A DNA stretch of 64,000 bases, from the NCBI GenBank assembly GCA_038237435.1, contig JBBRYT010000001.1, forward strand, positions 152,656 to 216,655, in the 5' to 3' direction. Made by a program: the position numbers and the translations under genes. Positions within the stretch are counted from its first letter, which is position 1. Each line of letters opens with the position of its first letter. A model generated the notes under the pieces. That model did not search any database. It had not been told where the DNA came from and saw only the letters and a program-made list of their open reading frames with translations. Source of the DNA: Chthoniobacterales bacterium. Lineage in GTDB: Bacteria; Verrucomicrobiota; Verrucomicrobiia; Chthoniobacterales; UBA10450. This document shows, in pieces, positions 32,802 to 57,513 of the stretch.

Positions 32802-33140
32802 ATGAAAACGAAATTATGCCTCACCATTTTTGCGGCGGTAGCTGCGATGCAGCTCGCGCCCGTCAGTTTCGCCCAAGCGAACGATGATCAAGCTGGCTGG
32901 CAACGCCACGGTCGGCGCGCCCATTTGCTAGCGAACCTTTCCGCCGACGAACGAAGCAAACTCCGCGCTGCCAATCAAAAAGCGATGGCCGATCCCGCCG
33001 TGCAAGCCGCTAAAGAGCGAGCCAGGCAGGCGAGGAAAGATTTTCGCTCCCTCAAACGTGCCGCCCTGTTACGCGCCGATCCGTCGCTCCAGCCGATCCT
33101 AGACAAGATTCCCGAACGCGGGGGCAAGCGCAATACCTAG
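32802..33140 (+). CDS. hypothetical secreted helical protein
   Basis: 112 aa. Signal peptide MKTKLCLTIFAAVAAMQLAPVSFA. Confidence 0.5.
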   Translation: MKTKLCLTIFAAVAAMQLAPVSFAQANDDQAGWQRHGRRAHLLANLSADERSKLRAANQKAMADPAVQAAKERARQARKDFRSLKRAALLRADPSLQPILDKIPERGGKRNT

Positions 33141-33793
33141 AAATTCCGCGCGACCAACCGCTCGTTAGGCACAGTCCCGCCTTCGACGTAGGTGCCAGCG
33201 AATTCTGTGCTGCAGATGGTTCGATAGGTCGCGTGTGATCCGACCGCCGCCCCGGCGTAACCGAACGCAGGGTTGAAAATATTCTTGCGATGTTTTCGGC
33301 CGGGCAATCCGTCGTCGATGATCAAGGCCATGACGATTTCGCGCGCGCCAGAGCGGCCACACGCGAGATTTTCGCCCCACATTCCGCTCCAATTGCCGTA
33401 ACGATTGATGCGATCGCCGGTATTGCTGCCGCCTCGCCCGGAGTGACTCATCCCGCCGCCGGCTTGCTCGGCACAATGATCCGTCGCGGCCCGCGACATT
33501 CCTGGCGAGAAAACCAACGGAGCTTCGGGCGAAGCGCTGCGGAGGAAATGGATCGCATCGTCCAGAGCGCGCGTACCCTCCTTGGTTCGCAGTGGAATGC
33601 GACCCGGCACGATTAACAAGTTCCCGTGAAAATTGCCGCGTATTTCTTCGATGAAGGTCGCGTAGAGCGCGGGATTTTGGCGGGCCAGATTCATCTCGCG
33701 CACGATCGCGCTGCCGGAATTTGGTTCTGCGAATGATGTCTGCGCGGCCACAAGAGAAAACATCAAACCAAGAGTGATAAAACAGCGTCTCAT
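33137..33793 (-). CDS. secreted CAP/SCP/PR1-like domain protein
   Basis: Start at ATG 33793 gives the signal peptide MRRCFITLGLMFSLVAAQTSFA. CAP-like blocks are MNLARQNP, HSGRGG and GRKHRKNIFNP. Confidence 0.75.
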   Translation of the reverse strand: MRRCFITLGLMFSLVAAQTSFAEPNSGSAIVREMNLARQNPALYATFIEEIRGNFHGNLLIVPGRIPLRTKEGTRALDDAIHFLRSASPEAPLVFSPGMSRAATDHCAEQAGGGMSHSGRGGSNTGDRINRYGNWSGMWGENLACGRSGAREIVMALIIDDGLPGRKHRKNIFNPAFGYAGAAVGSHATYRTICSTEFAGTYVEGGTVPNERLVARNF

Positions 33794-33806
33794 TATGGTA
33801 TTTATG

Positions 33807-33822
33807 AGCAAAACCAGTGCCA
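33807..33822 (-). promoter_or_regulatory. candidate sigma-54 (-24/-12) promoter
   Basis: The minus strand reads TGGCAC-TGGTT-TTGCT, a full match to TGGCAC-N5-TTGCW. It ends 14 nt upstream of ATG 33793. Confidence 0.45.
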
Positions 33823-33873
33823 CCGCGGCACTGGAACGAGGGTTGACACCCACCGTCGCTGCTCGTAGCTTCC

Positions 33874-40980: not shown

Positions 40981-41475
40981 ATGGCACTACCCGTCGGCAG
41001 CAAAGCACCTGATTTCACTCTCCCTACCAAGACTGCTGACGGCTCAAAGCCGATCACACTCCGCGAAAACTTTGCGAAAGGAAATACGCTGCTGCTTTTT
41101 TTTCCGATGGCCTTCACCGGGACATGCACGACGGAAATGTGCGGGGTGAGTATGGACATCGCAGCTTATAGCAGCTTGAACGCGACCGTTTATGGAATCA
41201 GCGGCGACAATCCTTTCGCGCAGGAAGCGTGGGCTACGCAGGAGCATATCACCGTGCCGTTGTTGAGCGATTACGAACACGAAGTCGCGCGCGCCTACGA
41301 CGTGGCCTACGACTCGTTTCTCCCGCAAATGAGTTTGCCGATGGGCGGAGTCCCGAAACGCGCGGTCTTCGTGATCGATCGTTCGGGCGTCATTCAATAT
41401 TCGGAATGCAACGATGACGCGCGCGCGCTCCCGAATTTCGAGAAGATCAAAGCGCGCCTCGCGGAAATGAAATAA
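40981..41475 (+). CDS. peroxiredoxin (AhpE-like)
   Basis: APDFTLP ... [15 protein letters not shown] peroxidatic Cys context. Confidence 0.85.
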
Positions 41476-44339
41476 TGACTAACGAATTCAAAACTCTGCA
41501 GAAATTCGACGCCGGTAAAGGGCGTGAAAGTCAGCTTCATTCACTGCCCGCGCTGGAGGAGCAAGGCGTCGGACCGATCTCGCGTTTGCCGGTCAGCATT
41601 CGCATAGTGCTCGAATCTGTCCTGCGAAATTGCGACGGCAAAAAAGTTCGACGCAAGGACGTCGAGACGCTGGCAAACTGGAACGCGAAGAAGCCGGCGA
41701 ACGAAGAAATTCCATTCGTGGTCGCGCGCATTGTCTTACAGGATTTCACCGGTGTTCCGCTGGTGGTCGATCTGGCCGCGATGCGCAGCGCAGTAAAAAA
41801 TCTCGGCGGCGATCCGAAGATTATCGAGCCGCTCGTGCCGGTCGATCTGGTCGTTGATCACAGCGTGCAGGTTGATTTCGCCGGCTCGGCGGAAGCGTTG
41901 CGTTTGAACATGGAAATGGAATTCAAACGCAACCGCGAGCGTTACCAGTTTTTGTAATGGGGTCAGCAGGCCTTCAAGACTTTCGGTCTCGTCCCTCCCG
42001 GCATCGGCATCGTACATCAGGTGAATCTCGAGTATCTCGCGAAAGGCGTGCTTGAACGCGATGGGGTTTATTTTCCGGACACGCTCGTCGGCACCGATTC
42101 ACACACGACCATGATCAACGGCCTCGGCGTGGTCGGTTGGGGCGTCGGCGGTATCGAAGCGGAAGCAGGAATGCTTGGTCAGCCGGTTTATTTTCTTACG
42201 CCGGAGGTCGTTGGGGTGCAGATGACCGGTGAATTGCGCGAAGGCGTGACCGCAACCGATCTCGCACTGCACATCACGCAGATGCTGCGCGCACAAAAGG
42301 TGGTCGGGAAATTTGTCGAGTTTTACGGCGAAGGAGCGGCTTCGTTGCCGGTAGCGGATCGCGCGACGATCGGAAACATGTCGCCGGAATACGGCGCAAC
42401 CATGGGATTTTTCCCGATCGATGGAGAATCGGTCGCGTACTTGCGCGCGACTGGACGGACCGAAGAACAATGCGCCGCTTTCGAAAATTATTTCCGCGCA
42501 CAAAAAATGTTCGGCATGCCGAAGAAGGGCGAGATCGATTACAGCGTGGATCTCGCACTCGATCTCGCTGAGGTGCAGCCAAGCGTGGCCGGACCGAAAC
42601 GTCCCCAGGATCGCATTAACCTTCCCGAACTCGGCGACACGTTCCGCGACTTGTTCGCGAAGTCGATCAAAGATGGCGGCTATGGCAAGAATGCCGATTC
42701 TTTAACGCAGCGATTTCCCATTCATATGAACGGGCGTTCGCACGACAAGAACGACATGCCGTCGACCGATAAGCGTGACCAAGGAATTAATCCCGCTGAT
42801 CAGCTCAACAAAGTCGAGATGGTGGCGAATCGCCCAACGCCGGACTCCGTCGCCGAAATAAAAGCCGAAACGAATGTGACGCCGGCCGAGATGGGACCGA
42901 CCGCCGATTCCCGCATTGGCCATGGCAGCGTTTTGATTGCGGCGATTACAAGTTGCACGAACACGAGCAATCCGAGCGTGATGCTCGCTTCGGGTTTACT
43001 CGCCAAAAAAGCGGTCGAGCGCGGCCTGCGCGTCGATCCGTCGGTCAAGACTTCGCTCGCGCCGGGCTCACGTGTGGTCACGGATTATTTGAACAAGACC
43101 GGCCTGCAAAAATATCTCGACCAACTGGGCTTCAACACTGTCGGGTACGGTTGCACGACGTGTATCGGAAATTCAGGCCCGCTCCATCCGAAGATCGAAA
43201 AAGCAATTAACGAAAACGACCTCATTGCCGCATCGGTTCTTTCTGGGAACCGCAACTTTGAGGCGCGTGTGCATCAAAACATCAAAGCGAATTTCCTTAT
43301 GTCGCCGCCGCTCGTGGTTGCTTTCGCCTTGGCGGGACGCGTCGATCTCGATCTGTCCAAGGACTCGTTAGGCAAAGATCGCGACGGCAAAGACGTCTAT
43401 CTGCGCGACCTCTGGCCGACGCTGCAGGAAATCCGCGATACCCTGCGCACCGCGCTGACGCCGGAAGTTTTTCAGCGTTTGTATCGCGACTTCAGCGCTC
43501 AGAATCCGAAGTGGAACGAAATCCCGTCGAGCGTGGGCGAAATCTACGAGTGGGATGAGAAAAGTGATTACATTCATGAGCCGCCGTTCTTCCAGGATTT
43601 CGGGATGGAAGCGGGCCGCATCGAAGACATTTGCAACGCGCGGCCGCTCGGAATTTTTGGCGACTCGGTTACGACCGATCACATCTCGCCCGCGGGCGCG
43701 ATTAAGCCGACGTCGCCGGCCGGCCAGTATCTGAAGTCGCGCGGAATCGAGGCCGCGGATTTCAACAGCTACGGATCACGACGCGGGAACGACTTGGTAA
43801 TGACGCGTGGAACATTCGCGAATGTGCGGATCAAGAATCTGATGGTGCCAGGTGTAGAAGGCGGCGTGACGGTTCATCATCCCCACGGCGAACAAATGTC
43901 GATCTATGACGCAGCCACCAAATATCAGAGCGAAGGCACGCCGCTCGTCATTCTCGCAGGACATGAATACGGAACCGGTTCGTCGCGCGACTGGGCGGCG
44001 AAAGGGACGCGCTTGTTAGGCGTGAAGGCTGTAGTAGCGGCAAGTTTCGAACGCATCCATCGCTCGAATTTAGTCGGCATGGGTGTATTGCCGTTGCAGT
44101 TTGCCGAGGGAACGAATGCGCAAACCCTTGGGCTTGATGGCTCGGAAATTTTCAGCATCACCGGCCTGGGAGAAAAAATTCAGCCCGGACAAATGGTGAC
44201 GCTCGAAATCGCGCGCAAAGATGGCGCAAAACAATCCGTTCCGGTAAAGCTGCGCATCGATACCCCGATTGAGATCGATTACTACCGACACGGCGGAATT
44301 CTTCCGTTTGTTTTGCGGGAGTTGGTGGCGAAGAAGTAG
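41475..44339 (+). pseudogene. acnA: aconitate hydratase A interrupted by a single in-frame TAA (41955-41957)
   Basis: ORFs 41475..41957 and 42021..44339 are in the same frame. The junction reads ERYQFL[31 protein letters not shown], where aconitases have FL[KR]WGQ. The rest is full length and intact. Confidence 0.7.
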
Positions 44340-48398: not shown

Positions 48399-48472
48399 GT
48401 GCCTGTAGCTCAACCGGATAGAGCTTCTGACTTCGGATCAGAAGGTTGGGGGTTCGAATCCCTCCAGGCACG
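48399..48472 (+). tRNA. tRNA-Arg (TCG)
   Basis: Acceptor GTGCCTG/CAGGCAC. Anticodon loop CTTCGGA. T-arm GGTTCGAATCC. Confidence 0.9.
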
Positions 48473-48490
48473 GAATTCTTAGCGCCCGGC

Positions 48491-49708
48491 ATGAATACGC
48501 CGCGACGTCCCCTCATCGTCCTGCTCGGCATGATGACCCGAATGCCGGTCGGCGGCGTCGTTTGGCAAACGATCCATTATATCGTCGGGCTACAGCGATT
48601 GGGATTCGAAGTTGTCTACATCGAGGATCACGGCGCGTATCCGGCGATGTTCACGAGCAAGGATGATCCCGATGGCGGCGAGAAAGCGGCTGAATTTATC
48701 GCCCGCACGTTGCAGGAGTTCGATCTGGGACTGCGATGGTCGTACCACGCCTGGCACGCGGAGCATCGCTATTACGGTCTTGATAAAACGCAGGTTATCC
48801 ACGTCTTTCAAAGCGCCGACGCGATCATCAACCTGCACGGCGGAACATTACCGCGCACCGAGCATCGGTCGCGCGGGGCGCTGATTTATGTCGAGACCGA
48901 TCCGGTCGCACCGGAAGTGGAGTTGCACAACAATCTCGAGGCGACGCACCAATTTTTAGACGCACACACAGCCTACTTCACGTTCGGCGAAAATCTTGGT
49001 GCACCGGATTGTAAAGTTCCGGTGCCGCCGGCGCGTTACAAATTCTTGGCGACTAGACAGCCAGTCGTTTTAGATTTCTGGCGGAGCACAGAACCGTCGG
49101 GCGGCGAAACTTTTACTACCATCGCTAATTGGCGTCAGCCCCAGCGACAAATGACGCTCAACGGGGAAGTTTATCATTGGAGCAAGCATCATGAATTCTT
49201 GAAATTTCTCGATTTGCCGCGGCGGACGACGCAGCAGTTCGAGCTCGCGCTTAGCAGCTACGAGCCGTCTGATTTTGAAATGTTAAAGGCGGAAGGATGG
49301 TTGGTGCGCAATGCGTTGGAATTTTCCACGGACCCGCAAGCCTATCGGCAGTATCTCCTGCAGTCGCGCGGAGAATGGACCGTGGCGAAGGACCAGAATG
49401 TTAGGCTGCGCAGCGGTTGGTTTAGTGATCGGGCTGCAACTTATTTGGCGGCTAGTCGACCGGTAGTGACCCAGGACACTGGCTTGGCGAATATACTTCC
49501 GACGGGCTCCGGACTTTTCGCGTTCTCCGACATGAACGAAATCTTGTCGGCCATCGATCGGATTAATACGGATTACGAAAAGCAGTGCCGCGGCGCAGCC
49601 GAAATCGCCCGTGATTATTTCGACGCGGAAATGGTGCTGGCGAAGCTGCTGAACGACGCCGGAGTCTCAATGCCCAAGATGAAAAAGGCATCAGCACTTC
49701 ATGCGTGA
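48491..49708 (+). CDS. hypothetical protein, possibly a GT-B/CgeB-like glycosyltransferase
   Basis: About 405 aa from ATG 48491. Only a general resemblance: an N-terminal Rossmann-like beta-strand and a C-terminal GT1-like tail. Paired with a YdjC-type deacetylase. Confidence 0.45.
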   Translation: MNTPRRPLIVLLGMMTRMPVGGVVWQTIHYIVGLQRLGFEVVYIEDHGAYPAMFTSKDDPDGGEKAAEFIARTLQEFDLGLRWSYHAWHAEHRYYGLDKTQVIHVFQSADAIINLHGGTLPRTEHRSRGALIYVETDPVAPEVELHNNLEATHQFLDAHTAYFTFGENLGAPDCKVPVPPARYKFLATRQPVVLDFWRSTEPSGGETFTTIANWRQPQRQMTLNGEVYHWSKHHEFLKFLDLPRRTTQQFELALSSYEPSDFEMLKAEGWLVRNALEFSTDPQAYRQYLLQSRGEWTVAKDQNVRLRSGWFSDRAATYLAASRPVVTQDTGLANILPTGSGLFAFSDMNEILSAIDRINTDYEKQCRGAAEIARDYFDAEMVLAKLLNDAGVSMPKMKKASALHA

Positions 49709-50438
49709 AAGCATGGACGAACGACGCGTCATCGTGAACGCTGATGATTTCGGATTAAGCGACGGAATCAACCGCGGAATTATCGAGGCGCACGAGACTG
49801 GGATTGTAACCAGCGCGAGCTTGATGGTTCGTTACCCAGCCGCACGGGAGGCTGCAGAGCTCGCGAAGACGAATCCGAAACTTAGCGTGGGCTTGCATTT
49901 CGATGTGGCAGAATGGCGTTATCGAAATGGAAATTGGAAAGTATTCTATCAAGTCATAGACGCCAAAGACGCCGCGGCGGTGGAAGTCGAATTGCAGCGG
50001 CAGCTCGCGCTATTTCAAGGTCTGATGAATCGCGCGCCGACTCATCTCGATTCACACCAGCACGTTCACAAGTCCGAGCCCGCGCGTACGATTCTGCTGT
50101 GCGCGGCCGCAAAATTGCGAATACCGCTGCGCGCTTGCGGCTCATTAGTCAGACATTGCGGAGATTTTTATGGTCAGACCGCTGCGGGTCAGTCATTTCC
50201 GAGCGGTATTTCTACATCGCGGCTAGGCGAGATGATCAAACGCATCGAACCCGGCTGGACAGAAATCGGATGTCACCCCGGTTACGCGGATAAGCTGGAC
50301 TCCGTTTATCTAATCGAACGCGAAATTGAGCTTCGTGTTTTGTGTAGCGCCGAGATTCGGCGCACGGTGAGAGAAAATGAAATTGACCTGGTCTCGTTTC
50401 GAGACTTGGCCGAAAGATTACGCGCCTCCAGTTGTTAG
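49701..50438 (+). CDS. ChbG/YdjC/HpnK-family carbohydrate deacetylase
   Basis: VIVNADDFGLSDGINRGIIEAHETGIVTSASLMV. Confidence 0.8.
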   Translation: MRESMDERRVIVNADDFGLSDGINRGIIEAHETGIVTSASLMVRYPAAREAAELAKTNPKLSVGLHFDVAEWRYRNGNWKVFYQVIDAKDAAAVEVELQRQLALFQGLMNRAPTHLDSHQHVHKSEPARTILLCAAAKLRIPLRACGSLVRHCGDFYGQTAAGQSFPSGISTSRLGEMIKRIEPGWTEIGCHPGYADKLDSVYLIEREIELRVLCSAEIRRTVRENEIDLVSFRDLAERLRASSC

Positions 50439-50453
50439 GCTGGAGACGCGTAA
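50418..50453. terminator. 13-bp interrupted hairpin between convergent genes
   Basis: TTACGCG-C-CTCCAG / loop TTGTTAGG / CTGGAG-A-CGCGTAA. The ydjC-like stop TAG (50436-50438) lies in the loop. Confidence 0.45.
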
Positions 50454-50461
50454 CGCTGCAG

Positions 50462-50585
50462 ATTAGTTTAGGAGGGTCTTACTCCCGCGTCTAAGTCCAC
50501 CTTTAGCATCCTTGCGCGGCTTTAAGTCCTTCATCTTCACCTGCGACTTCTTCGCGCTTTTCGTGCTTTTCTTTTGAGTTGGCAT
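50462..50585 (-). pseudogene. third small GG-motif peptide gene, broken by a 1-nt frameshift
   Basis: ATG 50585 gives MPTQKKSTKSAKKSQVKMKDLK, then stops at 50504-50502. Skipping one base after the A4 run (plus-strand T4, 50520-50523) continues PRKDAKGGLRRGSKTLLN-stop. That restores the motif shared with the two upstream peptides. Confidence 0.35.
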
Positions 50586-50652
50586 TTTTTCGTTGGGTTG
50601 GTTGTGCTCTGCTCGCATGGCGGGATCGGACCACCACGCGAGCCAGAGTCAA

Positions 50653-50844
50653 TTAGTCGTTCGTGACCGTCTTGTCGGTGTTGACGGTGCCGCCACTCGG
50701 ACTCGTGGTCCGGTCCAGCCCCCCGCTCGAGTCTTGATTGATCCGACCGCCGCCGCCCTTGGCGTCTTTTTTCGGGCTCAAATCTTGAATCTTGACGCCC
50801 GGTTTCTTTTCGTTGCCTTCAGTACCTTCTTTGTTTTGTGACAT
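50653..50844 (-). CDS. small Lys/Gly-rich peptide with a DLSPKKDAKGG motif (candidate double-glycine exported peptide)
   Basis: 63 aa: MSQNKEGTEGNEKKPGVKIQDLSPKKDAKGG-GGRINQDSSGGLDRTTSPSGGTVNTDKTVTND. Starts 2 nt after the preceding peptide gene. Confidence 0.55.
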   Translation of the reverse strand: MSQNKEGTEGNEKKPGVKIQDLSPKKDAKGGGGRINQDSSGGLDRTTSPSGGTVNTDKTVTND

Positions 50845-50846
50845 GA

Positions 50847-51035
50847 CTAGTTATTTCCTTTACTTGGGTTGTTTGTTTCGGTGTCCGAGGATCCGAAATA
50901 GAATTTGATACCACCACGCACGTTCTGCTTTGGAATTAGATCGTCCAAGCGGATCAATTTTTCTTTCTTACCTCCAGGCTTTTGATTTTTGTTATCTCCA
51001 GCTTGCGCACCTTTGTTTTGTTTTGATGCACTCAC
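50847..51035 (-). CDS. small Lys/Gly-rich peptide with a DLIPKQNVRGG motif (candidate double-glycine exported peptide)
   Basis: 62 aa with a GTG start preceded by AGGAG: MSASKQNKGAQAGDNKNQKPGGKKEKLIRLDDLIPKQNVRGG-IKFYFGSSDTETNNPSKGNN. Confidence 0.55.
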   Translation of the reverse strand: MSASKQNKGAQAGDNKNQKPGGKKEKLIRLDDLIPKQNVRGGIKFYFGSSDTETNNPSKGNN

Positions 51036-51203
51036 CTTGCCGCTCCTATTATCATCCTTCGTGCCAGCGTTGAAAAATGCGCGTGGGCGGCAAAGAACTA
51101 CTCGTTAGGCCGCGTCCAATCTGCCTATGGATCAAGGCTTTGCGCATCTGAAAAGATTTGGACCCGAAACGCGAGGGCGCCTTTTGACTCGACACCGAGT
51201 GGA

Positions 51204-52235
51204 TCATTTCGAGTCCTTCTCTGGATCCAAAATAGAGCCGTTGGCCTCGAAATGAGACACATTCTGCAAATAACGGACTAGGGTCGAACGCGAAATGCCC
51301 AGAAGCTTCGCCGTCAGGCGTTGATTACGATTGGCGCGAGCAAAAACAAACTGCACATGACGCGTCAAGGCGGACGACAGCGATAGATCCTGCCCGTTTG
51401 CGTCGCCCACTACTTCTGGCGTTTTCGTGTCGGCAGTACGCCTGGTCGATTCCGGGAGATCGGCCGAGAAGATCACGTTCTCCGGCAAAATTACTCCGCC
51501 TTCACAAAAAAGCGTCATGGTGTGCACGGTGTGACTCAGCTCACGTAAGTTTCCGCGCCAGTCGTGCGCCAGCAATCGCGCCATCGCTTCCGGATGAATG
51601 GCCCTGATCTTTTTTCCTTCCCGCGCCGCGGAAGCCTTTAGTTCCGTGGCGATCAAGGCCGGCAATTCCTCCAGCCGCTCACGCAACGGCGGAATCAAAA
51701 GAGTGACGCCGTTGAGTCGATGAAAAAGATCCTCTCGAAATTTTCCGTCGGCCACGCGCTGACGCAGCGAGCAATTGGCCGCGCAAATAATTCGCACATC
51801 GCAGCGCAACATTCGTTCGGAACCAAGCCTTTCGAATTCGCCATACTCCAGTGCGCGCAAAATTTTTACCTGCGCCAGTGCGCTCATCTCGGAAATTTCG
51901 TCAAGAAAAAGCGTACCGCTGTGCGCCAGCTCGAATTTTCCTTTCACGGCCTGCTGCGCACCGGTGAATGCGCCCCGCTCATGACCAAACAACTGACTTT
52001 CCAACAACGTGTCGCTCATCGCCGAAGCGTTGAAGGAAACGAAGGGCCGCCCTGCACGCAGGGATGAATTATGAATCGCGTGCGCCAGCAACGTTTTGCC
52101 CGTGCCCGTTTCCCCGAGGAGCACTACCGGCACGTCGGATTTGGATGCGACCGCGGCGAGCTGCAAACAACGCGCCATAGCGTCGGTGGTTGTGGTCAGG
52201 TCTTCGAGTTTCAAACCCGAAAGTGGCGCTTGCAT
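51204..52235 (-). CDS. sigma-54-dependent transcriptional activator lacking an N-terminal sensor/receiver domain
   Basis: 343 aa. The AAA+ domain begins about residue 25 (GETGTGKT, ERGAFTGA, LFLDEI). C-terminal Fis-type HTH (LLGISRSTLVRYL). Confidence 0.9.
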   Translation of the reverse strand: MQAPLSGLKLEDLTTTTDAMARCLQLAAVASKSDVPVVLLGETGTGKTLLAHAIHNSSLRAGRPFVSFNASAMSDTLLESQLFGHERGAFTGAQQAVKGKFELAHSGTLFLDEISEMSALAQVKILRALEYGEFERLGSERMLRCDVRIICAANCSLRQRVADGKFREDLFHRLNGVTLLIPPLRERLEELPALIATELKASAAREGKKIRAIHPEAMARLLAHDWRGNLRELSHTVHTMTLFCEGGVILPENVIFSADLPESTRRTADTKTPEVVGDANGQDLSLSSALTRHVQFVFARANRNQRLTAKLLGISRSTLVRYLQNVSHFEANGSILDPEKDSK

Positions 52236-52249
52236 TCGTTAGGCAGTCG

Positions 52250-53431
52250 TTAGTCGCGCGTATTCTCGCGCAATTGTCGGATCGGCTCGAAGGCGTATTC
52301 GATCATGGTACGACTACCCACCACGATGCGCGCTTCGCCTCGCATACCGACTCGCAGAGCCAGCGGCTTGGCGCGTTTGGCAGTGGCCTCGTCATCGATG
52401 GAAGCGAGGGCGACGAAACGCGGCCCTTCTGGCGCGGCCACGACCGAAGGACTAATCCAATCCAGACGGGCATTGACCACACCATAACGTTGATAGGGAT
52501 AAGCAGCGAAAAAGAACCGCACGCGTTGCCCGATGGAAAGCTTGGGGAGGCCCGCTTCGTTCAGCAGCAAACGCGCGCGCGGTTTGGAATCGAGCCGTGC
52601 CAACTGGCCAAGTTCCTGTCCGTTCTGTAGGACGCTCCCCGGATTTTTCTGCGCCAGTGAAATCACCACGGCATCATAAGGCGCGCGCAGTGTAAGCCGA
52701 TTTTGTTCGGTGTTTTCCAGGTCGCTTTTCAAGGCCGCAAGCCGGAATTTAATTTTCTCAATCTCAGCCAAATCCTGTCCACGTTGCCGCGCATGCTCCA
52801 TGTCGAGGCGCTGCCGGTCGAGAGTCACCTGCTGCAAACTGCGTTGCGCGACGCTGTAATCTTTTTCCGAGGCCGCGAGATCGAGCCTCATTCGTAAGAG
52901 CTCCACCTGCGAGATGCCGCCATTTTTCGACAGCTTGTCCATGCGGTCGACCAGTTCGGCGTTGGTCTTGGAGTGACGTTCGCGAAATTCTACTTCGCTT
53001 TTCGATTGCGCGATTTCGGCATCTTTGATTTCCATCTGCGCGCCAAAAGCGGACTCCGTCTTCTTTAGACTTTCTTCGCGCGTCCGTAGATCCTCCGCGA
53101 GTGTCAGATTCTGGGTATCGCGGTTGCGGATTTCATCCGATTGCAAAACGAACAACTCTTGCCCTTGCTTAACCGCGTCGCCTTCGCTGACCGAAACTTT
53201 GTGCAAAATCGCGAGTAACGGCGATTGGATCGGATCGGCACCTTCCCGCGGCACAAGCACAAAGGGCGCAGTTACATTTTCCGGCAGGTGAACCAGGCAG
53301 GCGGCCAGAATCCCGACGGCAAAAAATGCAATCAAGAGCCATCCGCTTGCCCTCATAATCCACGAGGGCGGGTCTTGCGGCAGCATTTCCGATTCTGTTT
53401 CGAAGGAACCGCGAACAGCCTGGGTTGCCAT
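52250..53431 (-). CDS. HlyD-family secretion adaptor protein
   Basis: 393 aa. N-terminal TM anchor, lipoyl-like and coiled-coil hairpin regions, and a C-terminal beta-barrel pattern. Confidence 0.85.
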   Translation of the reverse strand: MATQAVRGSFETESEMLPQDPPSWIMRASGWLLIAFFAVGILAACLVHLPENVTAPFVLVPREGADPIQSPLLAILHKVSVSEGDAVKQGQELFVLQSDEIRNRDTQNLTLAEDLRTREESLKKTESAFGAQMEIKDAEIAQSKSEVEFRERHSKTNAELVDRMDKLSKNGGISQVELLRMRLDLAASEKDYSVAQRSLQQVTLDRQRLDMEHARQRGQDLAEIEKIKFRLAALKSDLENTEQNRLTLRAPYDAVVISLAQKNPGSVLQNGQELGQLARLDSKPRARLLLNEAGLPKLSIGQRVRFFFAAYPYQRYGVVNARLDWISPSVVAAPEGPRFVALASIDDEATAKRAKPLALRVGMRGEARIVVGSRTMIEYAFEPIRQLRENTRD

Positions 53432-53437
53432 AATAGA

Positions 53438-56400
53438 TCAGATTCCGAGCTGCTGACTCGACAGGTAAAAATACAGGCCGCGCTGGGCCATGAGTTGATC
53501 GTGATTGCCGGTTTCCGCGACCATTCCCTTTTCCAAAACAACAATTGTATCCGCTTCGCGAATCGTGCTCAGTCGATGCGCGATCACGATCGTCGTCCGG
53601 CCCGCCATTAAACGGCCGAGATTATCCTGAATGGCACGCTCCGATTCAGTATCGAGGGCGCTCGTTGCCTCGTCGAAAATCAAGACGGGCGGGTTGTTGT
53701 AAATCGCGCGAGCGATGGCAACACGTTGTTTTTGTCCGCCAGAGAGCGAAAGACCAGATTCGCCGATCTTTGTTTCGTAACCCATCGGCAAACGCATGAT
53801 GAAATCGTGCGCGGCCGCGGTTTGCGCCGCCGTCAAAACCCGATCGAGATCCGGCTCCGCATCACCGAATGCGATGTTGCGTGCGATCGTTTCGTTAAAA
53901 ATGTGATTTTCCTGCAACACCATACCGATGTGCCGGCGAACATCGCGATAGTTGAGCGTTTTCAGATCGACATGATCGAACATGATCGTGCCTTCCGTCG
54001 GTTCGAGCAGACCCGCGATTAATTTTATCAGAGTGGTCTTACCGCAACCGCTTCGTCCGACTAATGCGACCATTCTGCCCGGCGCGAGATCGAGCGTGAT
54101 GTTACTCAAAATATTTGGCGCTTCCGGTCCGCCGTACTTGAAGCTGACCTTCTTCAACTCGATGCGGCCTTCGAGACTATGCACCGGCGCGAGGCGCGAA
54201 CGATCGCGGCCCTGCTCCGGATCCTGTTCGAAAATATCGTTCAGCCGGTTCAGCAACACCGAAGCAAACTGCATGTTGTCCCAGACGCCGAGCGTGCGCA
54301 GGATCCCGCCGTAAGCGAGCGCGGTCAGCGAACTGAAGGCGACGAATCCACCGACGCTGAGCGATCCGTTCATCACCTGATTCGCCCCCACCCAGAGGAA
54401 AATAGCGGTCGATAACATTCCGATCGTTTGCAGCACACTGTCATACGACATGACAATGAAACTGCTGCGGAAAATCTTCTGCGAAACGGCCAGAAATTCG
54501 TTCAGCATCGTGTCGCGGAAGACAGCTTCCGCCGACGCCGCCTTGACTGCTTCGATGCCTTTGATCGCGTCGATCTGATGTGAGCTGTACTTTCCCTGGC
54601 TCTCTTCCACGCTCGCAAAAAGCGGACGCAGGACCTTGAAAGAGAAATACATTAACCCCGCGTAGAGCGGCGTCGTGCAAAGAAACGCGAACATCAGCGA
54701 CGAGCTGTAGAGCGTCATTAAACAAAGCGAACCGACCAGCGTGACCAGTGCCAGCAACGCGCCGATGCCCTGACCGACAGCGAATTGCCGCACCTGCCGC
54801 GCGCCGTCGAGTCGGCGTTGAATGTCGCCGGTGCGTCGGCTGGTGAAATAAGTCATCGGCAACGAAAGTAATTGCCGGCTAAGAAAATCGAGGATGGAAG
54901 TGTCGAGTCGCACCGCAGCGAACGCCAATAAATATTGCTGAATCAGATTCGAAGCCTGCACGAAGAAAAGCGCGATCGCCATTCCCAGGAGAATCACTTT
55001 CAGCAGCCCGATATCGTGTTCGACGATGACCTTATCGACCACCATCTGCGTGAAGATGGGGAAGAGCATTTGCAAGAACGTCACTGCGACCGCGAGCAGC
55101 AACACTTGCAGCAGAGTCTTGCGGTGTTGTGTGAAGAACGGCAGCACCCACGCCAGTGATGGTTTGCTTTCCGGCGCCTGCTCGAAGGCGACCGTGTAAT
55201 CGAAGAGCGCAGCGTAGCCCGACCAATTCATTTCAAATTCCTTGCGCGGAATTTTCCGAATCCCGCGCGCCGGATCGGCCACACGCACGAACTTGTCGTT
55301 CACATCGAAGAGCACCATCCAATGGTTGCCTTCCCAATGAATGATCGCGGGCAACGGCATGGCCGGCAGATTGCGCAGCGAAATTTTCAGCGCGCGCGCC
55401 GCCAGGCCGAGTTCGGTGGCCGCGCGACACATCGCTTTCAAGCTCGTGCCATCAGTCGACGTGTGACAGAGCTGGCGAATTCTGGTCAGGCTAACTTTGC
55501 GTCCGAAATGACGGCAGATCATCCCAAGGCTGGCCGCGCCGCAATCCATCTCGTCGATCTGCGCGACATGCTCGAACTTACGGATGCGACGCGCGCGTTT
55601 TTTGAAAAGACCTTGCTCATCGGCAAACGGATCGGCACTGCCGTCGCGATCCGCCGGTTGGGCGGTTTCGTCGATCGCGACCTTGTTGTGCGCGCGCACT
55701 TCCGCAGGCAAAGTCTCTTCGCTGAAATCGAGCGGAACGCGCGCCTCCGTTTTCGCATGGTACTGAGCGAGCCTCTCGTCGAGCAGTTTGCTGAAATCCG
55801 GAAATTCCTTTTTCAGCTCCTGCACAGATTCGGGTGCAAGCGTAAGCAACCGGCAATCGGAAAATGCTTCCACCGAAGCGGCGCGGGGCGAACCGTTCAG
55901 AATGGAGAGCTCGCCGAAAAAATCGCCATCACGATAAAAGGCGAGATTCGTTTCGCGCCCATTGTTTCCGGCAAAGGCGCGGGCGCGTCCTTTCTCCAAA
56001 ATGTACATCGGCCCCGCGGCATCGCCCTGTCGGATAATGAGATCCCCTTTCGGGACTTCGATGGGCGAAAGTTTTTCCACCACGCTGCGCAACGCGGGCG
56101 TGGGCAACCGGCCGAAGTTACTGAACTCGTAAAGAAAGCCCTGTAGGGAGCGGTGGCGTTTGATCAGCTCGACCTCTTGTTTGATCTCGGGCACTTCCTC
56201 CGAGAGCGCGAGAAAATCAGAGCGATTCAATTTCAAAACCGTGACCGCCGTGCTGCAACGCACCATGGCATTGCGCGTGCCGCCTTCGCCGAGCGCCGCT
56301 TCGCCGAACACATCCCCGGGGCGCAAAGTTGCGAGCGCGATTTCCGTTCCGTTCTGGTCGGTCTTGATCGCGCGAGCGCGGCCTGAAAGCAGAACATAAA

Positions 56401-56551
56401 ACGAATCGGCGGGATCGTTTTGGTGCACGATCACGTCGCCAAATTCAAAATTCTCTTCCTTCAACAACGGGCGCAGACGGCCGAAATATTGCTCGGGCAA
56501 AAATCGAAACAGCGAAGTGCGCTGCAGAATTTCTTCGTCCTGCGTTCTCAT
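53438..56551 (-). CDS. peptidase-C39-containing ABC exporter with two N-terminal cyclic-nucleotide-binding domains
   Basis: Two cNMP-binding modules (FGEAAL...RNAMV, FGELSIL...RAASV). C39 domain with DEMDCGAASLGMI Cys and a downstream NHW His. Six-TM ABC core. Walker A GRSGCGKTT, LSGGQKQR, LIFDEATSALD. ATG 56551 forms an ATGA overlap with the upstream gene; the longer GTG 56581 start is possible. Confidence 0.9.
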   Translation of the reverse strand: MRTQDEEILQRTSLFRFLPEQYFGRLRPLLKEENFEFGDVIVHQNDPADSFYVLLSGRARAIKTDQNGTEIALATLRPGDVFGEAALGEGGTRNAMVRCSTAVTVLKLNRSDFLALSEEVPEIKQEVELIKRHRSLQGFLYEFSNFGRLPTPALRSVVEKLSPIEVPKGDLIIRQGDAAGPMYILEKGRARAFAGNNGRETNLAFYRDGDFFGELSILNGSPRAASVEAFSDCRLLTLAPESVQELKKEFPDFSKLLDERLAQYHAKTEARVPLDFSEETLPAEVRAHNKVAIDETAQPADRDGSADPFADEQGLFKKRARRIRKFEHVAQIDEMDCGAASLGMICRHFGRKVSLTRIRQLCHTSTDGTSLKAMCRAATELGLAARALKISLRNLPAMPLPAIIHWEGNHWMVLFDVNDKFVRVADPARGIRKIPRKEFEMNWSGYAALFDYTVAFEQAPESKPSLAWVLPFFTQHRKTLLQVLLLAVAVTFLQMLFPIFTQMVVDKVIVEHDIGLLKVILLGMAIALFFVQASNLIQQYLLAFAAVRLDTSILDFLSRQLLSLPMTYFTSRRTGDIQRRLDGARQVRQFAVGQGIGALLALVTLVGSLCLMTLYSSSLMFAFLCTTPLYAGLMYFSFKVLRPLFASVEESQGKYSSHQIDAIKGIEAVKAASAEAVFRDTMLNEFLAVSQKIFRSSFIVMSYDSVLQTIGMLSTAIFLWVGANQVMNGSLSVGGFVAFSSLTALAYGGILRTLGVWDNMQFASVLLNRLNDIFEQDPEQGRDRSRLAPVHSLEGRIELKKVSFKYGGPEAPNILSNITLDLAPGRMVALVGRSGCGKTTLIKLIAGLLEPTEGTIMFDHVDLKTLNYRDVRRHIGMVLQENHIFNETIARNIAFGDAEPDLDRVLTAAQTAAAHDFIMRLPMGYETKIGESGLSLSGGQKQRVAIARAIYNNPPVLIFDEATSALDTESERAIQDNLGRLMAGRTTIVIAHRLSTIREADTIVVLEKGMVAETGNHDQLMAQRGLYFYLSSQQLGI

Positions 56552-57513
56552 TCTGCGCCGTTTACCGGAGGAATACGCCACTGGATCCTGCCGGACGCGA
56601 GGTCGGCAAAATGGCGGGACAAAATTCTTTGATCGACGCGCTCACGCACTGCCGCGTCGTCCAGTTTCGGTTCGTTTTTTTGCAAGAGGCGCGTCAGCAC
56701 GAAACCGTCATCGCGCGCCGTCGGCTCGAGCAAGCTCCCCGGCGTGAGACTGAGAAATCGTTGCTGCATATCGTCGGGAATATTTTCCAACAACAGTTCC
56801 ATGCGACGAAAAGGATAGCGACCTTCGCGCGCCACTTCTTCCATCGACATACCATCGTCGCGCACGCACATGAAAGCTTCGCGGGCCGCATCGCGCGATT
56901 CCAGCTCGATCATCTCGACCGCGAAACGTGTCAGCGGCAATCGCACCGCGCCCAGCTCACGTTCGCGCGCTTCTTTCGTCAGGCGTTGTTCACAATGACT
57001 GCGGTAGGCAGCTTCCAAGTCCTCCAAATTTTCGTCGTCGGATGCCGCCACCCGCCAGGCAAAACGTTGCGCCATTCGGTCGAGTTCCCCCGATAAAACC
57101 AGATCCACCATGAAAAGATCGCGCTCCTCCTCATTCGCATCTTCAAAAGGAGTCGCGGGCGCTTCACCTCGTCCGGCGTAAATTTTCCCCCACTCGATCC
57201 GGGCAAAATATTCGCTGAAATCCGACAGAGTCAGTCCACGCGCCTCCAACCAGGCTTCTGTCTCTTCTGCGGTGATCAAGTCGTATTGGTAACGAAAAGC
57301 GATGGCCGCCTCATCGATAACCGACCCATCCAACTCAGTGTCTGATTCCTCACCCCGCGCAGCCGCTTCTTTGCGACGAAGAAATTCCTGCCAGAGCGGC
57401 GCGACCTCGCCGCGAAAATGCGCGGCTTCAATCAAATCGCGCACGGTATAATCCCGCGACCCGCGAGAAAAAACCGGACGGCTCTCCTTTAATACTGGCA
57501 CCGAACTCGCCAT
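56548..57513 (-). CDS. acidic hypothetical protein, first gene of the export cluster (possibly a parvulin/PpiC-like accessory protein)
   Basis: 321 aa. The C-terminal half (ESRDAAREAFMCVRDDGMSMEEVAREG ... GFVLTRLL) loosely resembles rotamase-like domains. This is an impression only. Confidence 0.5.
   Translation of the reverse strand: MASSVPVLKESRPVFSRGSRDYTVRDLIEAAHFRGEVAPLWQEFLRRKEAAARGEESDTELDGSVIDEAAIAFRYQYDLITAEETEAWLEARGLTLSDFSEYFARIEWGKIYAGRGEAPATPFEDANEEERDLFMVDLVLSGELDRMAQRFAWRVAASDDENLEDLEAAYRSHCEQRLTKEARERELGAVRLPLTRFAVEMIELESRDAAREAFMCVRDDGMSMEEVAREGRYPFRRMELLLENIPDDMQQRFLSLTPGSLLEPTARDDGFVLTRLLQKNEPKLDDAAVRERVDQRILSRHFADLASGRIQWRIPPVNGAE

Follow-up and report, generated by a model that had tools for sequence, protein, structure and literature searches.

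We analysed a 64,000-nucleotide stretch of DNA from a soil Verrucomicrobium of the Chthoniobacterales (assembly GCA_038237435.1, contig JBBRYT010000001.1, positions 152,656 to 216,655; hereafter referred to as the window). Three small ORFs (hereafter referred to as A, B and C) lie in tandem on the minus strand of the window, directly downstream of a cassette of four genes on the same strand, encoding a partner protein with a predicted SurA/PrsA fold, a peptidase-containing ABC transporter (PCAT), a HlyD-family adaptor and a sigma-54-dependent activator (Table 1). The stop codon of A and the ATG of B are separated by 2 nt, an SD-like AAGGA lies inside the last codons of A, and the exporter gene lies 2.4 kb upstream of the array. 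The three peptides carry the motif h-x-D-L-x-P-x-x-[DN]-[AV]-x-G-G.

Table 1. Features of the peptide locus; positions are those of the window.
Feature	Coordinates	Strand	Description
Partner protein	56548..57513	-	321 aa; predicted SurA/PrsA fold, PpiC-related; distant relative of TIGR04500 (MirC family)
PCAT exporter	53438..56551	-	likely start ATG 56551 (1037 aa), mechanical ORF starting at GTG 56581; two N-terminal cyclic-nucleotide-binding domains, C39 peptidase, ABC membrane domain, ATPase
HlyD-family protein	52250..53431	-	membrane-fusion (periplasmic adaptor) protein of a type I secretion system
Sigma-54-dependent activator	51204..52235	-	bacterial enhancer-binding protein; AAA+ domain and HTH only, no receiver or sensor domain
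Candidate upstream activator site	51136..51148	-	TGCGCAAAG-type element, about 70-80 nt upstream of the -24 element
Candidate sigma-54-type promoter (-24/-12)	51051..51066	-	TGGCAC-N5-ATGAT
Peptide A precursor	50847..51035	-	62 aa, GTG start
A, leader	50910..51035	-	ending ..KLIRLDDLIPKQNVRGG
A, probable internal alternative start	50955..50957	-	TTG, leader position -16; would give a 16-residue leader, (M)IRLDDLIPKQNVRGG
A, predicted core	50850..50909	-	IKFYFGSSDTETNNPSKGNN
Peptide B precursor	50653..50844	-	63 aa, ATG start
B, leader	50752..50844	-	MSQNKEGTEGNEKKPGVKIQDLSPKKDAKGG
B, hypervariable core	50656..50751	-	
Peptide C precursor	50463..50618	-	51 aa; conserved start probably the second ATG, at 50585 (MPTQKK..., 40 aa)
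C, leader		-	ends at 50496 (..VKMKDLKPRKDAKGG)
C, short variable core	50466..50495	-	
Hairpin, probable (bidirectional) terminator	50417..50454	-	15 bp, directly after the stop codon of C

An earlier note, made from the sequence alone, had described these three ORFs as sharing an unusual, proline-containing and basic leader that ends in Gly-Gly and is followed by divergent cores. The peptide sequences given there were exact, and a six-frame scan of the window with its motif, [ILM]-x-D-L-x-P-[KR]-[KQ]-[DN]-[AV]-[KR]-G-G, identified exactly these three hits and no others, against an analytic expectation of 1e-6 per window and 0 hits in 200 shuffles. As the note had anticipated, similarity searches were uninformative: no NCBIfam family at E<=1 and no Pfam family at E<=10 matched A, B or C, and an Rfam scan of positions 50200-51400 at E<=1 yielded nothing. 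An AF2 model of peptide A, built with 22 homologues, was essentially disordered (pLDDT 60), with a four-residue helix at LDDL, and provided no structural lead.

We then investigated whether the motif and the integrity of the ORFs were conserved. There were 129 genome matches, of which the 80 returned (79 loci) were all Chthoniobacterales/Ca. Udaeobacter MAGs. The first database search provided 96 relatives, and a later search with a B/C profile scored 2,620 peptides at E<=10; all the named ones were from Chthoniobacterales/Ca. Udaeobacter. The gene order partner, PCAT, HlyD, activator, A, B (and C) recurred in the related loci, with the array syntenic with the exporter and HlyD in about 60 of 79 loci, including nearly all those with enough upstream flank, and was confirmed by the called genes in loci L080 and L081, in which the exporter orthologues are 1037 aa long. 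P0038, P0055 and P0057 are orthologues of C. By contrast, GNAT, Asp/Glu racemase, YdjC and a 420-aa unknown gene next to the cassette were syntenic only in the closest relatives, and were therefore not considered to be parts of the system.

The motif is under purifying selection (pN/pS 0.16, at a pS of 0.59). In the N-terminal region of A, pN/pS was 0.51 in frame 0, against 0.93 and 0.97 in the other frames, and the length of this region was fixed at 27 codons in 74 of 80 genes. Notably, in three close relatives, nucleotide identity fell from 92-100% to 23-46% exactly after the GG codons of B and C and recovered at the next leader, as expected at a boundary between leader and core. The post-GG parts are unrelated between the three paralogues, as stated in the earlier note, but that of A is conserved among its orthologues (xQLLFGATDT...), whereas the B/C cores are hypervariable repeats rich in G, S, T, N, Q and H (24% Gly and 12% Ser, with few hydrophobic residues and no Cys). 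The length of the ORFs after GG is not evidence for coding, because the DNA is T-poor and the other two frames are open even longer. Nevertheless, all 18 strong DNA tandem repeats had periods that were multiples of 3, and codon position 3 was 51% C, supporting translation of the cores. No reverse transcriptase domain was found in any neighbouring ORF scanned, providing no indication of DGR-type diversification.

In 57 A-type and 149 B/C-type peptides, GG was present in 100% of the sequences, Asp at -11 in 100% and Pro at -8 in 99-100%. Position -4 was small and hydrophobic (Val 94% and Ala 5% in A-type, Ala 100% in B/C-type). The leader nevertheless lacks the Leu(-12)-x3-Glu(-8)-Leu(-7) consensus, that is, the hydrophobic -7 and -12 residues on an alpha-helix used by the C39 domains of ComA and LahT (PMC6363468): position -7 was Lys in about 90% of the peptides, -12 was Asp (A) or Arg/Gln (B/C), and the hydrophobic residues were at -10, -13 and -15. 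The departure from the canonical leader claimed in the earlier note is therefore real, although recognition by the C39 domain is, for the same reason, not guaranteed.

The exporter contains two Pfam cNMP_binding stretches followed by Peptidase_C39, ABC_membrane and ABC_tran, and the catalytic Gln/Cys (QIDEMDCGAASLG), His (NHW) and Asp (ADPA) are present. Its best solved relatives are PCAT1, ComA and HlyB, and its best NCBIfam hit, TIGR03796 (the NHLP-type PCAT), was below the cutoff (542 against 853 bits). The adaptor matched Pfam HlyD_3 and HlyD_D23 and NCBIfam TIGR01843 (7.8e-40). The partner protein, in which no signal peptide was seen by eye, had no Pfam hit, but 15 of 31 homologues hit PF13145 Rotamase_2. 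All 31 hit TIGR04500, “putative peptide maturation system protein”, below its cutoff (best 2e-13), and the window protein itself scored only 36 bits against a cutoff of 180. Its AF2 model (pLDDT 91) had PrsA, SurA and PEB4/Cj1289 as top Foldseek PDB matches, and its stop codon overlaps the ATG of the exporter gene as ATGA. No outer-membrane factor, immunity gene or receptor gene is part of the conserved cassette.

The activator matched Pfam Sigma54_activat (1.9e-61, starting at residue 15) and AAA_lid_14, contains the GAFTGA loop, and always lay immediately upstream of the gene for peptide A. In the window alone, the match to a sigma-54 promoter is not significant: a search for TGGCAC-N5-TTGC with two mismatches was not enriched (58 matches against 68 expected). 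However, 73 of 79 A genes have TGG[CT]A[CT]-N5-NTG with the -13 G lying 15-19 nt before the GTG start, a pattern found in 116 of 20,000 random 60-nt windows. The -12 element was TG[A/G/T], never the canonical TGC, so the assignment to sigma-54 remains tentative. A GCGTAA/TGCRYAA element recurred at a fixed distance from this promoter across loci and, in Udaeobacter-type loci, formed part of a dyad, GCTGCGT-N23-ACGCAGC, suggesting an activator-binding site. A scan for sigma-70 and terminator consensus sequences gave only weak matches near background, but the hairpin located between C and the convergent YdjC gene was strongly predicted (MFE -28.4 kcal/mol, z-score -4.55, 0 of 200 shuffles folding as well) and was conserved in loci L001 and L002. 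Within A, the codon at leader position -16 was TTG in 54, GTG in 12 and ATG in 7 of 80 genes, whereas TTG makes up only 19% of Leu codons in long ORFs, and 13% and 8% at the two other invariant Leu positions of the motif. In the window, GGAGG lies 12 nt upstream of this codon, which is probably an alternative start.

Taken together, these data make it likely that A, B and C are genuine, translated precursor peptides with a double-glycine-type leader, forming the substrate operon of a dedicated type I secretion cassette. The leader/core reading of the earlier note is supported. In the model that we infer, the sensor-less activator binds about 95 bp upstream and fires the -24/-12 promoter, the predicted transcription start lies only 3-7 nt before the GTG of A, and the transcript ends at the hairpin after C. 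A would be translated from the GTG, an awkward signal with so short a 5' UTR, and probably also from the internal TTG, and B and C from ATGs. The disordered, basic precursors would be recognised through the box [IV]-x-[VIL]-x-D-L-x-P (box peptides KTIKVRDLKPKK and KLIRLDDLIPKQ), together with the residue at -4 and the GG, and probably handled by the cytoplasmic partner. The C39 domain would cut after GG, and the ABC exporter, HlyD and an unlinked outer-membrane channel would expel the cores, with the tandem cyclic-nucleotide-binding domains plausibly gating this step. The inferred products are one conserved peptide of about 20 residues and one to three strain-specific, polar, low-complexity repeat peptides. 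These peptides appear to be unmodified, and more likely act in cell-cell or strain-strain interactions than as membrane-active bacteriocins, given that no conserved extra small gene that might confer immunity accompanies the array and that the cores are polar. The cores have no features of known bacteriocins or pheromones, so their function is open.

Other interpretations are less well supported. It is possible, but unlikely, that the peptides are RiPP precursors modified before export, for example by ester or lactam cross-links made by an ATP-grasp ligase encoded elsewhere, with the partner assisting the ligase. MirC, the only studied member of TIGR04500, is required by a graspetide synthetase in a cluster that also has a PCAT (PMC13097080), the Herpetosiphon homologue sits next to a RimK ATP-grasp gene, and the conserved core of A is rich in Thr, Asp, Glu and Lys. 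However, no ATP-grasp or other known RiPP-tailoring enzyme was found among the ORFs scanned between 41 and 63.5 kb of the window, or within 10 kb in L080 and L081, the only genes conserved in about 60 loci are those of the cassette, the cores have no Cys, and those of B and C are too variable to hold fixed cross-link positions. A mainly intracellular, regulatory role, in which A, for example, holds the activator or the exporter and is removed by cyclic-nucleotide-triggered export in a FlgM-like switch, appears still more doubtful. The activator needs a regulator acting in trans, A is conserved along its whole length, the A gene and its promoter are 96-100% identical in relatives whose flanking genes are 80-88% identical, and the B/C tails evolve almost freely. 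Nothing tested here supports this role directly, however, orphan promoter+A+B copies exist far from the activator, the GG and position -4 are invariant in B and C too, and the tails keep their reading frame and codon bias, suggesting that they are made and probably matter. There is little to favour the view that the box is only a docking tag for a chaperone or the exporter and that the GG is not cleaved: the -7/-12 contacts are missing and many tails contain further GG pairs, but the C39 catalytic residues are all retained, unlike those of the degenerate C39-like domains of uncleaved-substrate exporters, the conservation boundary coincides exactly with GG, and position -4 is always small and hydrophobic. 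Finally, despite the shortness of the ORFs, the near-absence of a 5' UTR for A and the open alternative frames, the possibility of chance ORFs, a non-coding RNA or a regulatory region is effectively refuted by the frame-specific constraint, the third-position variability and C-bias, the repeat periods and the thousands of homologues with intact frames.

The array resembles the known double-glycine peptides exported by PCATs (ComC/ComAB, colicin V/CvaAB, class II bacteriocins and microcins, PCAT1/CtA, LahT substrates) in its leader ending in Gly-Gly with a small hydrophobic residue at -4, its variable cores, its tandem precursor genes and its linkage to a catalytic C39 exporter and a HlyD-type adaptor. 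It differs from them in the absence of the canonical helix, the invariant Pro at -8, the strongly basic leader, the lack of an immunity gene, the polar cores, the putative sigma-54 control and the two cyclic-nucleotide-binding domains of the exporter. The HetC protein of Nostoc PCC 7120 has the same domain order, all three parts being required for its function, and is also a Gram-negative exporter working with a membrane-fusion partner (PMC10986499), but it has one cyclic-nucleotide-binding domain as drawn, which bound ppGpp and GTP rather than cAMP in vitro, and no GG-peptide gene lies near hetC. MirC has a SurA-like chaperone fold without a periplasmic location and is likewise encoded next to a PCAT and a GG-type precursor, MirA, the leader of which (MKRKPVQIDTIPADG...MLGG) has a basic N-terminus and an h-x-h-D-x-I-P box resembling LIRLDDLIP and IKVRDLKP. 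However, the role shown for MirC is as a partner of the ligase, not of the exporter, and the window peptides do not hit TIGR04497, whereas MirA does. NHLP/Nif11-leader precursors and prochlorosins also combine a highly conserved leader with hypervariable cores, but the leader described here is not homologous to nitrile hydratase alpha or to Nif11, and no LanM or cyclodehydratase is present.

Uncharacterised cassettes of a PpiC-type isomerase hitting TIGR04500 below its cutoff, a PCAT (cyclic-nucleotide-regulated where examined) and HlyD were also found on plasmids or chromids of Nostoc HK-01, Tolypothrix, Leptolyngbya, Nostoc PCC 7120, Burkholderia stagnalis and Caballeronia. Adjacent small GG-peptide genes, annotated only as hypothetical proteins and sometimes in tandem arrays (4 copies in Nostoc HK-01), carry an N-terminal box (IKITELRP, VINDLP, VEDLP, VQDLP), so the box regarded as unusual in the earlier note is not unique to this lineage. 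In those peptides, the box is followed by a 10-25-residue spacer including a canonical GG helix, whereas only 3-4 residues separate it from A/V-x-G-G in the window peptides; their cores are Cys-rich or D/S/I-rich, and there is no sigma-54 activator. This cross-phylum box was defined post hoc from few lineages, and the Tolypothrix example lacks the Pro. A tblastn search of plasmids with the partner protein gave no hit, and hhalign between the partner family and the Leptolyngbya PPIase was weak (E 0.015, probability 3%), so the relationship rests on shared sub-threshold TIGR04500 hits. We can therefore suggest only tentatively that h-K-h-x-[DE]-L-x-P is a cross-phylum recognition tag for cytoplasmic SurA/PpiC-fold partners, which hand double-glycine peptides to HetC-class PCATs gated by cyclic nucleotide or ppGpp, and that this box has displaced the canonical C39-recognition helix in Chthoniobacterales/Ca. 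Udaeobacter. If so, this would be the first natural substrate set proposed for this exporter class, and a previously unseen channel of cell-cell interaction in this uncultured lineage.

Ca. Udaeobacter and its relatives dominate many soils but are uncultured, and they were judged poor in secondary-metabolite clusters (PMC7343977). Literature searches linking Udaeobacter with bacteriocins or RiPPs, Verrucomicrobia with double-glycine, or C39 with PpiC and leader peptides found nothing relevant, and to our knowledge the cassette has not been described. Its conservation across the lineage suggests that these bacteria invest in secreted ribosomal peptides missed by standard genome-mining tools and annotation; all the homologues are annotated “hypothetical” or are not called as genes at all. 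The cassette pairs candidate substrates with a cyclic-nucleotide-domain PCAT, a class of which the best-studied member, HetC, still has no known substrate (PMC10986499). It also points to a two-part leader logic, with a Pro-containing box for a SurA/PpiC-fold partner and GG for the C39 peptidase, the box recurring in cyanobacteria, Burkholderiaceae and an actinobacterial graspetide precursor, that of rosaritide. Finally, the sharp conservation boundary between leader and core and the repeat-built, strain-specific cores offer a natural system for studying how hypervariable secreted peptides evolve.

The three ORFs described in the earlier note were all found on the minus strand, and the peptide sequences given there were exact. 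A six-frame scan of the whole window detected the motif only at these three places, against an expectation of 1e-6 per window from amino-acid frequencies and no occurrence in 200 shuffles. The stop codon of A and the ATG of B are separated by 2 nt. No Pfam or NCBIfam model matched the peptides, and no Rfam match was obtained. Four genes lie upstream on the same strand, encoding a protein without a Pfam hit, a peptidase-containing ABC transporter (PCAT), a HlyD-family adaptor and a sigma-54 activator. The C39 domain of the exporter retains the oxyanion Gln, the catalytic Cys (QIDEMDCGAASLG), the His (NHW) and the Asp (ADPA), and the activator retains GAFTGA. The ATG of the exporter at 56551 overlaps the stop codon of the upstream gene as ATGA, and this start gives a 1037-aa product, the same length as the orthologues. 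The two cyclic-nucleotide-binding domains carry phosphate-binding-cassette-like motifs, FGEAALGEGGTRNAMV and FGELSILNGSPRAASV (residues about 90-110 and 220-240 of the 1047-aa ORF). The second seems to resemble closely the PKA-type FGELAL..G.PRAA[TS]V, which hints at a true cyclic-nucleotide ligand, unlike HetC. Downstream, a convergent YdjC gene ends inside a 15-bp hairpin (z -4.55) that directly follows the stop codon of C.

Coordinates of the peptide genes, their neighbors and other features of the window
Feature	Coordinates	Strand	Description
Unknown gene	56548..57513	-	321 aa
PCAT	53438..56581	-	1047-aa ORF: two cNMP-binding domains, Peptidase_C39, ABC_membrane, ABC_tran
PCAT from the ATG at 56551	53438..56551	-	1037 aa
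HlyD-family adaptor	52250..53431	-	
Sigma-54 activator	51204..52235	-	AAA+ domain and HTH only
TGCRYAA element	51136..51148		
Sigma-54-type promoter	51051..51066		
Region of excess DNA conservation	50850..51070		Promoter, gene A and B leader, compared with L001 and L002
Peptide A	50847..51035	-	62 aa, GTG start
Leader position -16 codon of A	50955..50957	-	Possible internal start
Peptide B	50653..50844	-	63 aa
Peptide C	50463..50618	-	51 aa
Hairpin	50417..50454		15 bp
YdjC-like gene	49701..50438		Convergent with the peptide operon
420-aa unknown gene	48446..49708	+	No Pfam or NCBIfam family; translationally coupled to the YdjC-like gene
Aconitase, first ORF	41475..41957	+	PF00330
Aconitase, second ORF	42021..44339	+	PF00330
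Canonical sigma-54 consensus	33808..33822	-	TGGCACTGGTTTTGC
ORF with this consensus at its 5' end	33137..33853	-	Signal-peptide-like N-terminus

A profile of the three peptides retrieved 96 small proteins, the named ones being from Chthoniobacterales or Verrucomicrobiota soil MAGs. These proteins fall into three orthologous groups: an A-type (MSASKxKKGAQAGD...KLIRLDDLIPKQNVxGG), followed by a conserved xQLLFGATDT tail; a B-type (...KKPGVKIQDLSPKKDAKGG), followed by unrelated tails; and a C-type (MPTQKK...VKMKDLKPRKDAKGG), followed by short tails. In some relatives (database peptides P0012, P0019, P0028, P0078, P0086, P0090, P0095 and P0096), A and the following B/C gene are fused in one reading frame, giving a peptide with two leader boxes and two GG sites, and these might be real read-through forms or assembly or gene-calling artefacts. 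A scan of one genome per species yielded 129 matches, and the 79 loci returned (numbered with the prefix L) are all Chthoniobacterales, Ca. Udaeobacter or 'Verrucomicrobiae' MAGs. The order unknown-321, PCAT, HlyD, activator and A was recovered by tblastn in about 60 of them, that is, in nearly all those with enough upstream flank. Every locus has A followed by one to three B/C-type genes. A few genomes carry extra 'orphan' copies of A, usually with B, far from any exporter cassette (L032, L039, L060, L063, L066 and L078, and also L036, L058 and L072); most retain the sigma-54-type promoter, but L036, L058 and L072 lack it. A further class of motif-bearing small ORFs, with a different, partly hydrophobic N-terminus (..VVVRSVWRRLKKAKIRDLEIRDLEPEKDVKGGGG..), and a DLRPPKDPKGG variant were observed in L006 (opposite strand, about 1.2 kb downstream of A), L072 (L072:1080 and L072:8289) and L078 (minus strand). 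A broader B/C profile scored 2,620 database proteins at E<=10, dominated by MAQRKETKKTIKVRDLKPKKDAKGG plus a Q/N/S/H-rich tail, and two of these, looked up on long contigs, sit in the same cassette. By contrast, the GNAT, racemase, YdjC and 420-aa unknown genes are syntenic only in the nearest relatives and are thus not part of the system.

We investigated whether the ORFs are translated. Across 75 A genes, pN/pS was 0.16 for the motif (at pS 0.59), 0.51 for the N-terminal part and 0.62 for the post-GG part. In the N-terminal 27 codons, a length fixed in 74 of 80 genes, the annotated frame gave 0.51, against 0.93 and 0.97 in the other frames; third positions were the most variable, and both alternative frames contained stops. 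ORF length is uninformative for the B/C tails, because the DNA is T-poor and all frames are open. Nevertheless, all 18 strong DNA tandem repeats have periods that are multiples of three, and third codon positions are 51% C. SD-like tetramers precede 36 of 91 B/C ATGs, against 9% of random windows, and in the window the SD for B (AAGGA) is encoded by the last codons of A.

The window was then aligned with its two closest relatives, loci L001 and L002. DNA identity is 92-100% from the promoter through A and the B leader, higher than in the flanking genes (80-88%), drops to 23-46% immediately after the GGC GGC codons of B, returns to about 80% for the C leader, drops again after the GG of C, and recovers at the terminator hairpin. 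This is the strongest internal evidence that GG marks a functional boundary. The excess conservation at synonymous sites in the promoter, gene A and the B leader might be due to overlapping signals, RNA structure or recent gene conversion. The B/C cores have a median length of 31 aa and are 24% Gly and 12% Ser, with Thr, Ala, Asn, His and Gln next, almost no hydrophobic or aromatic residues and no Cys. Of 69 long tails, 28 are internally periodic, against 19 of 1,380 shuffles, examples being HTGQHTGQ, GGHLGGGHL, SRQGASRQG and SSLTGSSLTG, and paralogues within a locus share repeat units (loci L016 and L065). The core of A, in contrast, is conserved, with F and G nearly invariant.

A position table over 206 peptides showed G-1 and G-2 in 100%, V or A at position -4, N or D at -5, P-8 in 99-100%, L-10 in 99-100% and D-11 in 100%, with hydrophobic residues at -13 and -15 and basic residues at -3, -6/-7 and -14. 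Positions -7 and -12 are not hydrophobic, and -8 is Pro. Thus, GG and -4 are kept and the rest differs from the canonical leader, as claimed in the earlier note.

Seventy-three of 79 A genes have TGG[CT]A[CT]-N5-NTG, with the -13 G lying 15-19 nt before the start codon, whereas random 60-nt windows match at 0.6%. Assuming standard sigma-54 geometry, the transcript would start 3-7 nt before the GTG, which is the start codon in 77 of 79 genes, and the AGGAG seen in the window would then lie inside the promoter. The -12 element is TG[A/G/T]T, never TGC. About 70-80 nt upstream of -24 lies a conserved TGCRYAA element, which in Udaeobacter-type loci is the dyad GCTGCGT-N23-ACGCAGC. An adjacent activator with GAFTGA and no sensor domain fits this picture, but activity is inferred. 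Elsewhere in the window, a perfect canonical sigma-54 consensus lies at the 5' end of an ORF, and the aconitase reading frame is split into two ORFs, which could reflect a frameshift, a pseudogene or an assembly error. Notably, the Leu codon at leader position -16 of A is TTG in 54, GTG in 12 and ATG in 7 of 80 genes, whereas TTG accounts for 19% of Leu codons in long ORFs, and for 13% and 8% at the two other invariant Leu codons of the motif. This suggests selection for an internal start, which would give a 16-residue leader, (M)IRLDDLIPKQNVRGG, of canonical length, alongside the long form.

The unknown 321-aa protein has 1,177 homologues, and all named hits among the 120 listed are Chthoniobacterales or Verrucomicrobiota. 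Fifteen of 31 homologues hit PF13145 Rotamase_2, and all 31 hit NCBIfam TIGR04500 ('PpiC_rel_mature, putative peptide maturation system protein'), far below its cutoff. An AF2 model (pLDDT 91) matches the PrsA, SurA and PEB4/Cj1289 chaperone-isomerases. By eye, the protein has no signal peptide and lacks the two parvulin catalytic His residues. The only studied TIGR04500 protein, MirC, is a SurA-like partner without which the graspetide ligase MirB is inactive, and its cluster also encodes a PCAT (PMC13097080). No ATP-grasp or other known tailoring enzyme was found among the ORFs scanned near the window cassette or in the related loci L080 and L081.

A tblastn search of plasmids with the N-terminal 470 aa of the exporter identified full-length PCATs with two cNMP domains and a C39 domain in Burkholderia stagnalis, Caballeronia, Skermanella and Leptolyngbya. 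In Burkholderia the neighbors are a NodT/TolC outer-membrane factor, an FHA protein, HlyD and a TIGR04500-like 250-aa protein (87 bits) directly upstream of the exporter. In Leptolyngbya, Nostoc PCC 7120 (alpha plasmid), Nostoc HK-01 and Tolypothrix, an annotated 'peptidylprolyl isomerase' sits beside the exporter and HlyD, and these isomerases hit TIGR04500 at 44-80 bits. Small GG-peptide genes lie nearby (a slash marks the boundary after GG): MGVLVINDLPESVDLDRQAMAAITGG/... in Burkholderia; MTALAVEDLPCDLTLDREAMTCIHGG/... in Caballeronia; ...EFDVQDLPARATVV...SIYGG/, followed by a Cys-rich core, in Leptolyngbya; and MSDKKREIKLNDLNKQQ...EELNARGG/ in Tolypothrix, with no Pro. In Nostoc sp. HK-01 (plasmid5, L088:1240-2241), four near-identical tandem 65-aa genes (MAEIKITELRPTGSELFED...EMTVTLGG/GDSLLSISADTVDKSFISVGGDVSISK) lie upstream of three further genes, two annotated hypothetical and one an aldo/keto reductase, and the same locus holds two PpiC-like genes, HlyD and a cyclic-nucleotide-regulated PCAT, in what looks like an uncharacterised peptide cluster. 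MirA reads MKRKPVQIDTIPADGVELADDQLATMLGG/. A strict pattern, [VILM]xDLP...hxGG, is expected 0.003 times per shuffled locus and occurs 0 times in the rest of the window. The Skermanella locus, in which no isomerase gene is annotated (although its ORFs were not scanned against TIGR04500), has no such ORF. We therefore tentatively propose that h-(K)-h-x-[DE]-L-x-P is a box tied to the SurA/PpiC-fold partner, preceding a canonical GG helix in the other lineages, whereas in Chthoniobacterales only 3-4 residues separate it from A/V-x-G-G. This is inference. The pattern was defined after seeing the data, the lineages are few, and direct profile comparison of the partners is weak.

By its inferred mechanism, this is a GG-leader/PCAT/HlyD type I secretion system. 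The exporter shares its architecture with HetC, the cNMP domain of which bound ppGpp in vitro, and the substrate of which is unknown, with no GG gene nearby (PMC10986499). The peptides fail the sequence definitions of the curated leader families, the partner fails the TIGR04500 cutoff, and the exporter fails the TIGR03796 cutoff. We found no paper describing this cassette or linking Udaeobacter to secreted ribosomal peptides, and a genome study of Ca. Udaeobacter judged it poor in secondary-metabolite clusters.

The pattern of one conserved and several strain-specific secreted peptides suggests inter-cell or inter-strain interaction, and His/Gly-rich repeats in some cores suggest metal binding. 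An export-coupled regulatory role for A is not excluded. Classical quorum sensing is unlikely, because there is no receptor kinase, and membrane-active bacteriocins are likewise unlikely, because the cores are polar and there is no immunity gene. Overall, the observation is confirmed and the interpretation in the earlier note, of a shared leader with divergent cores, is supported, albeit with a core of A that is conserved among its orthologues. Although the biochemical steps are inferred, the finding has a plausible wider significance: a Pro-box leader class tied to a SurA/PpiC-fold partner and cNMP-gated PCATs.
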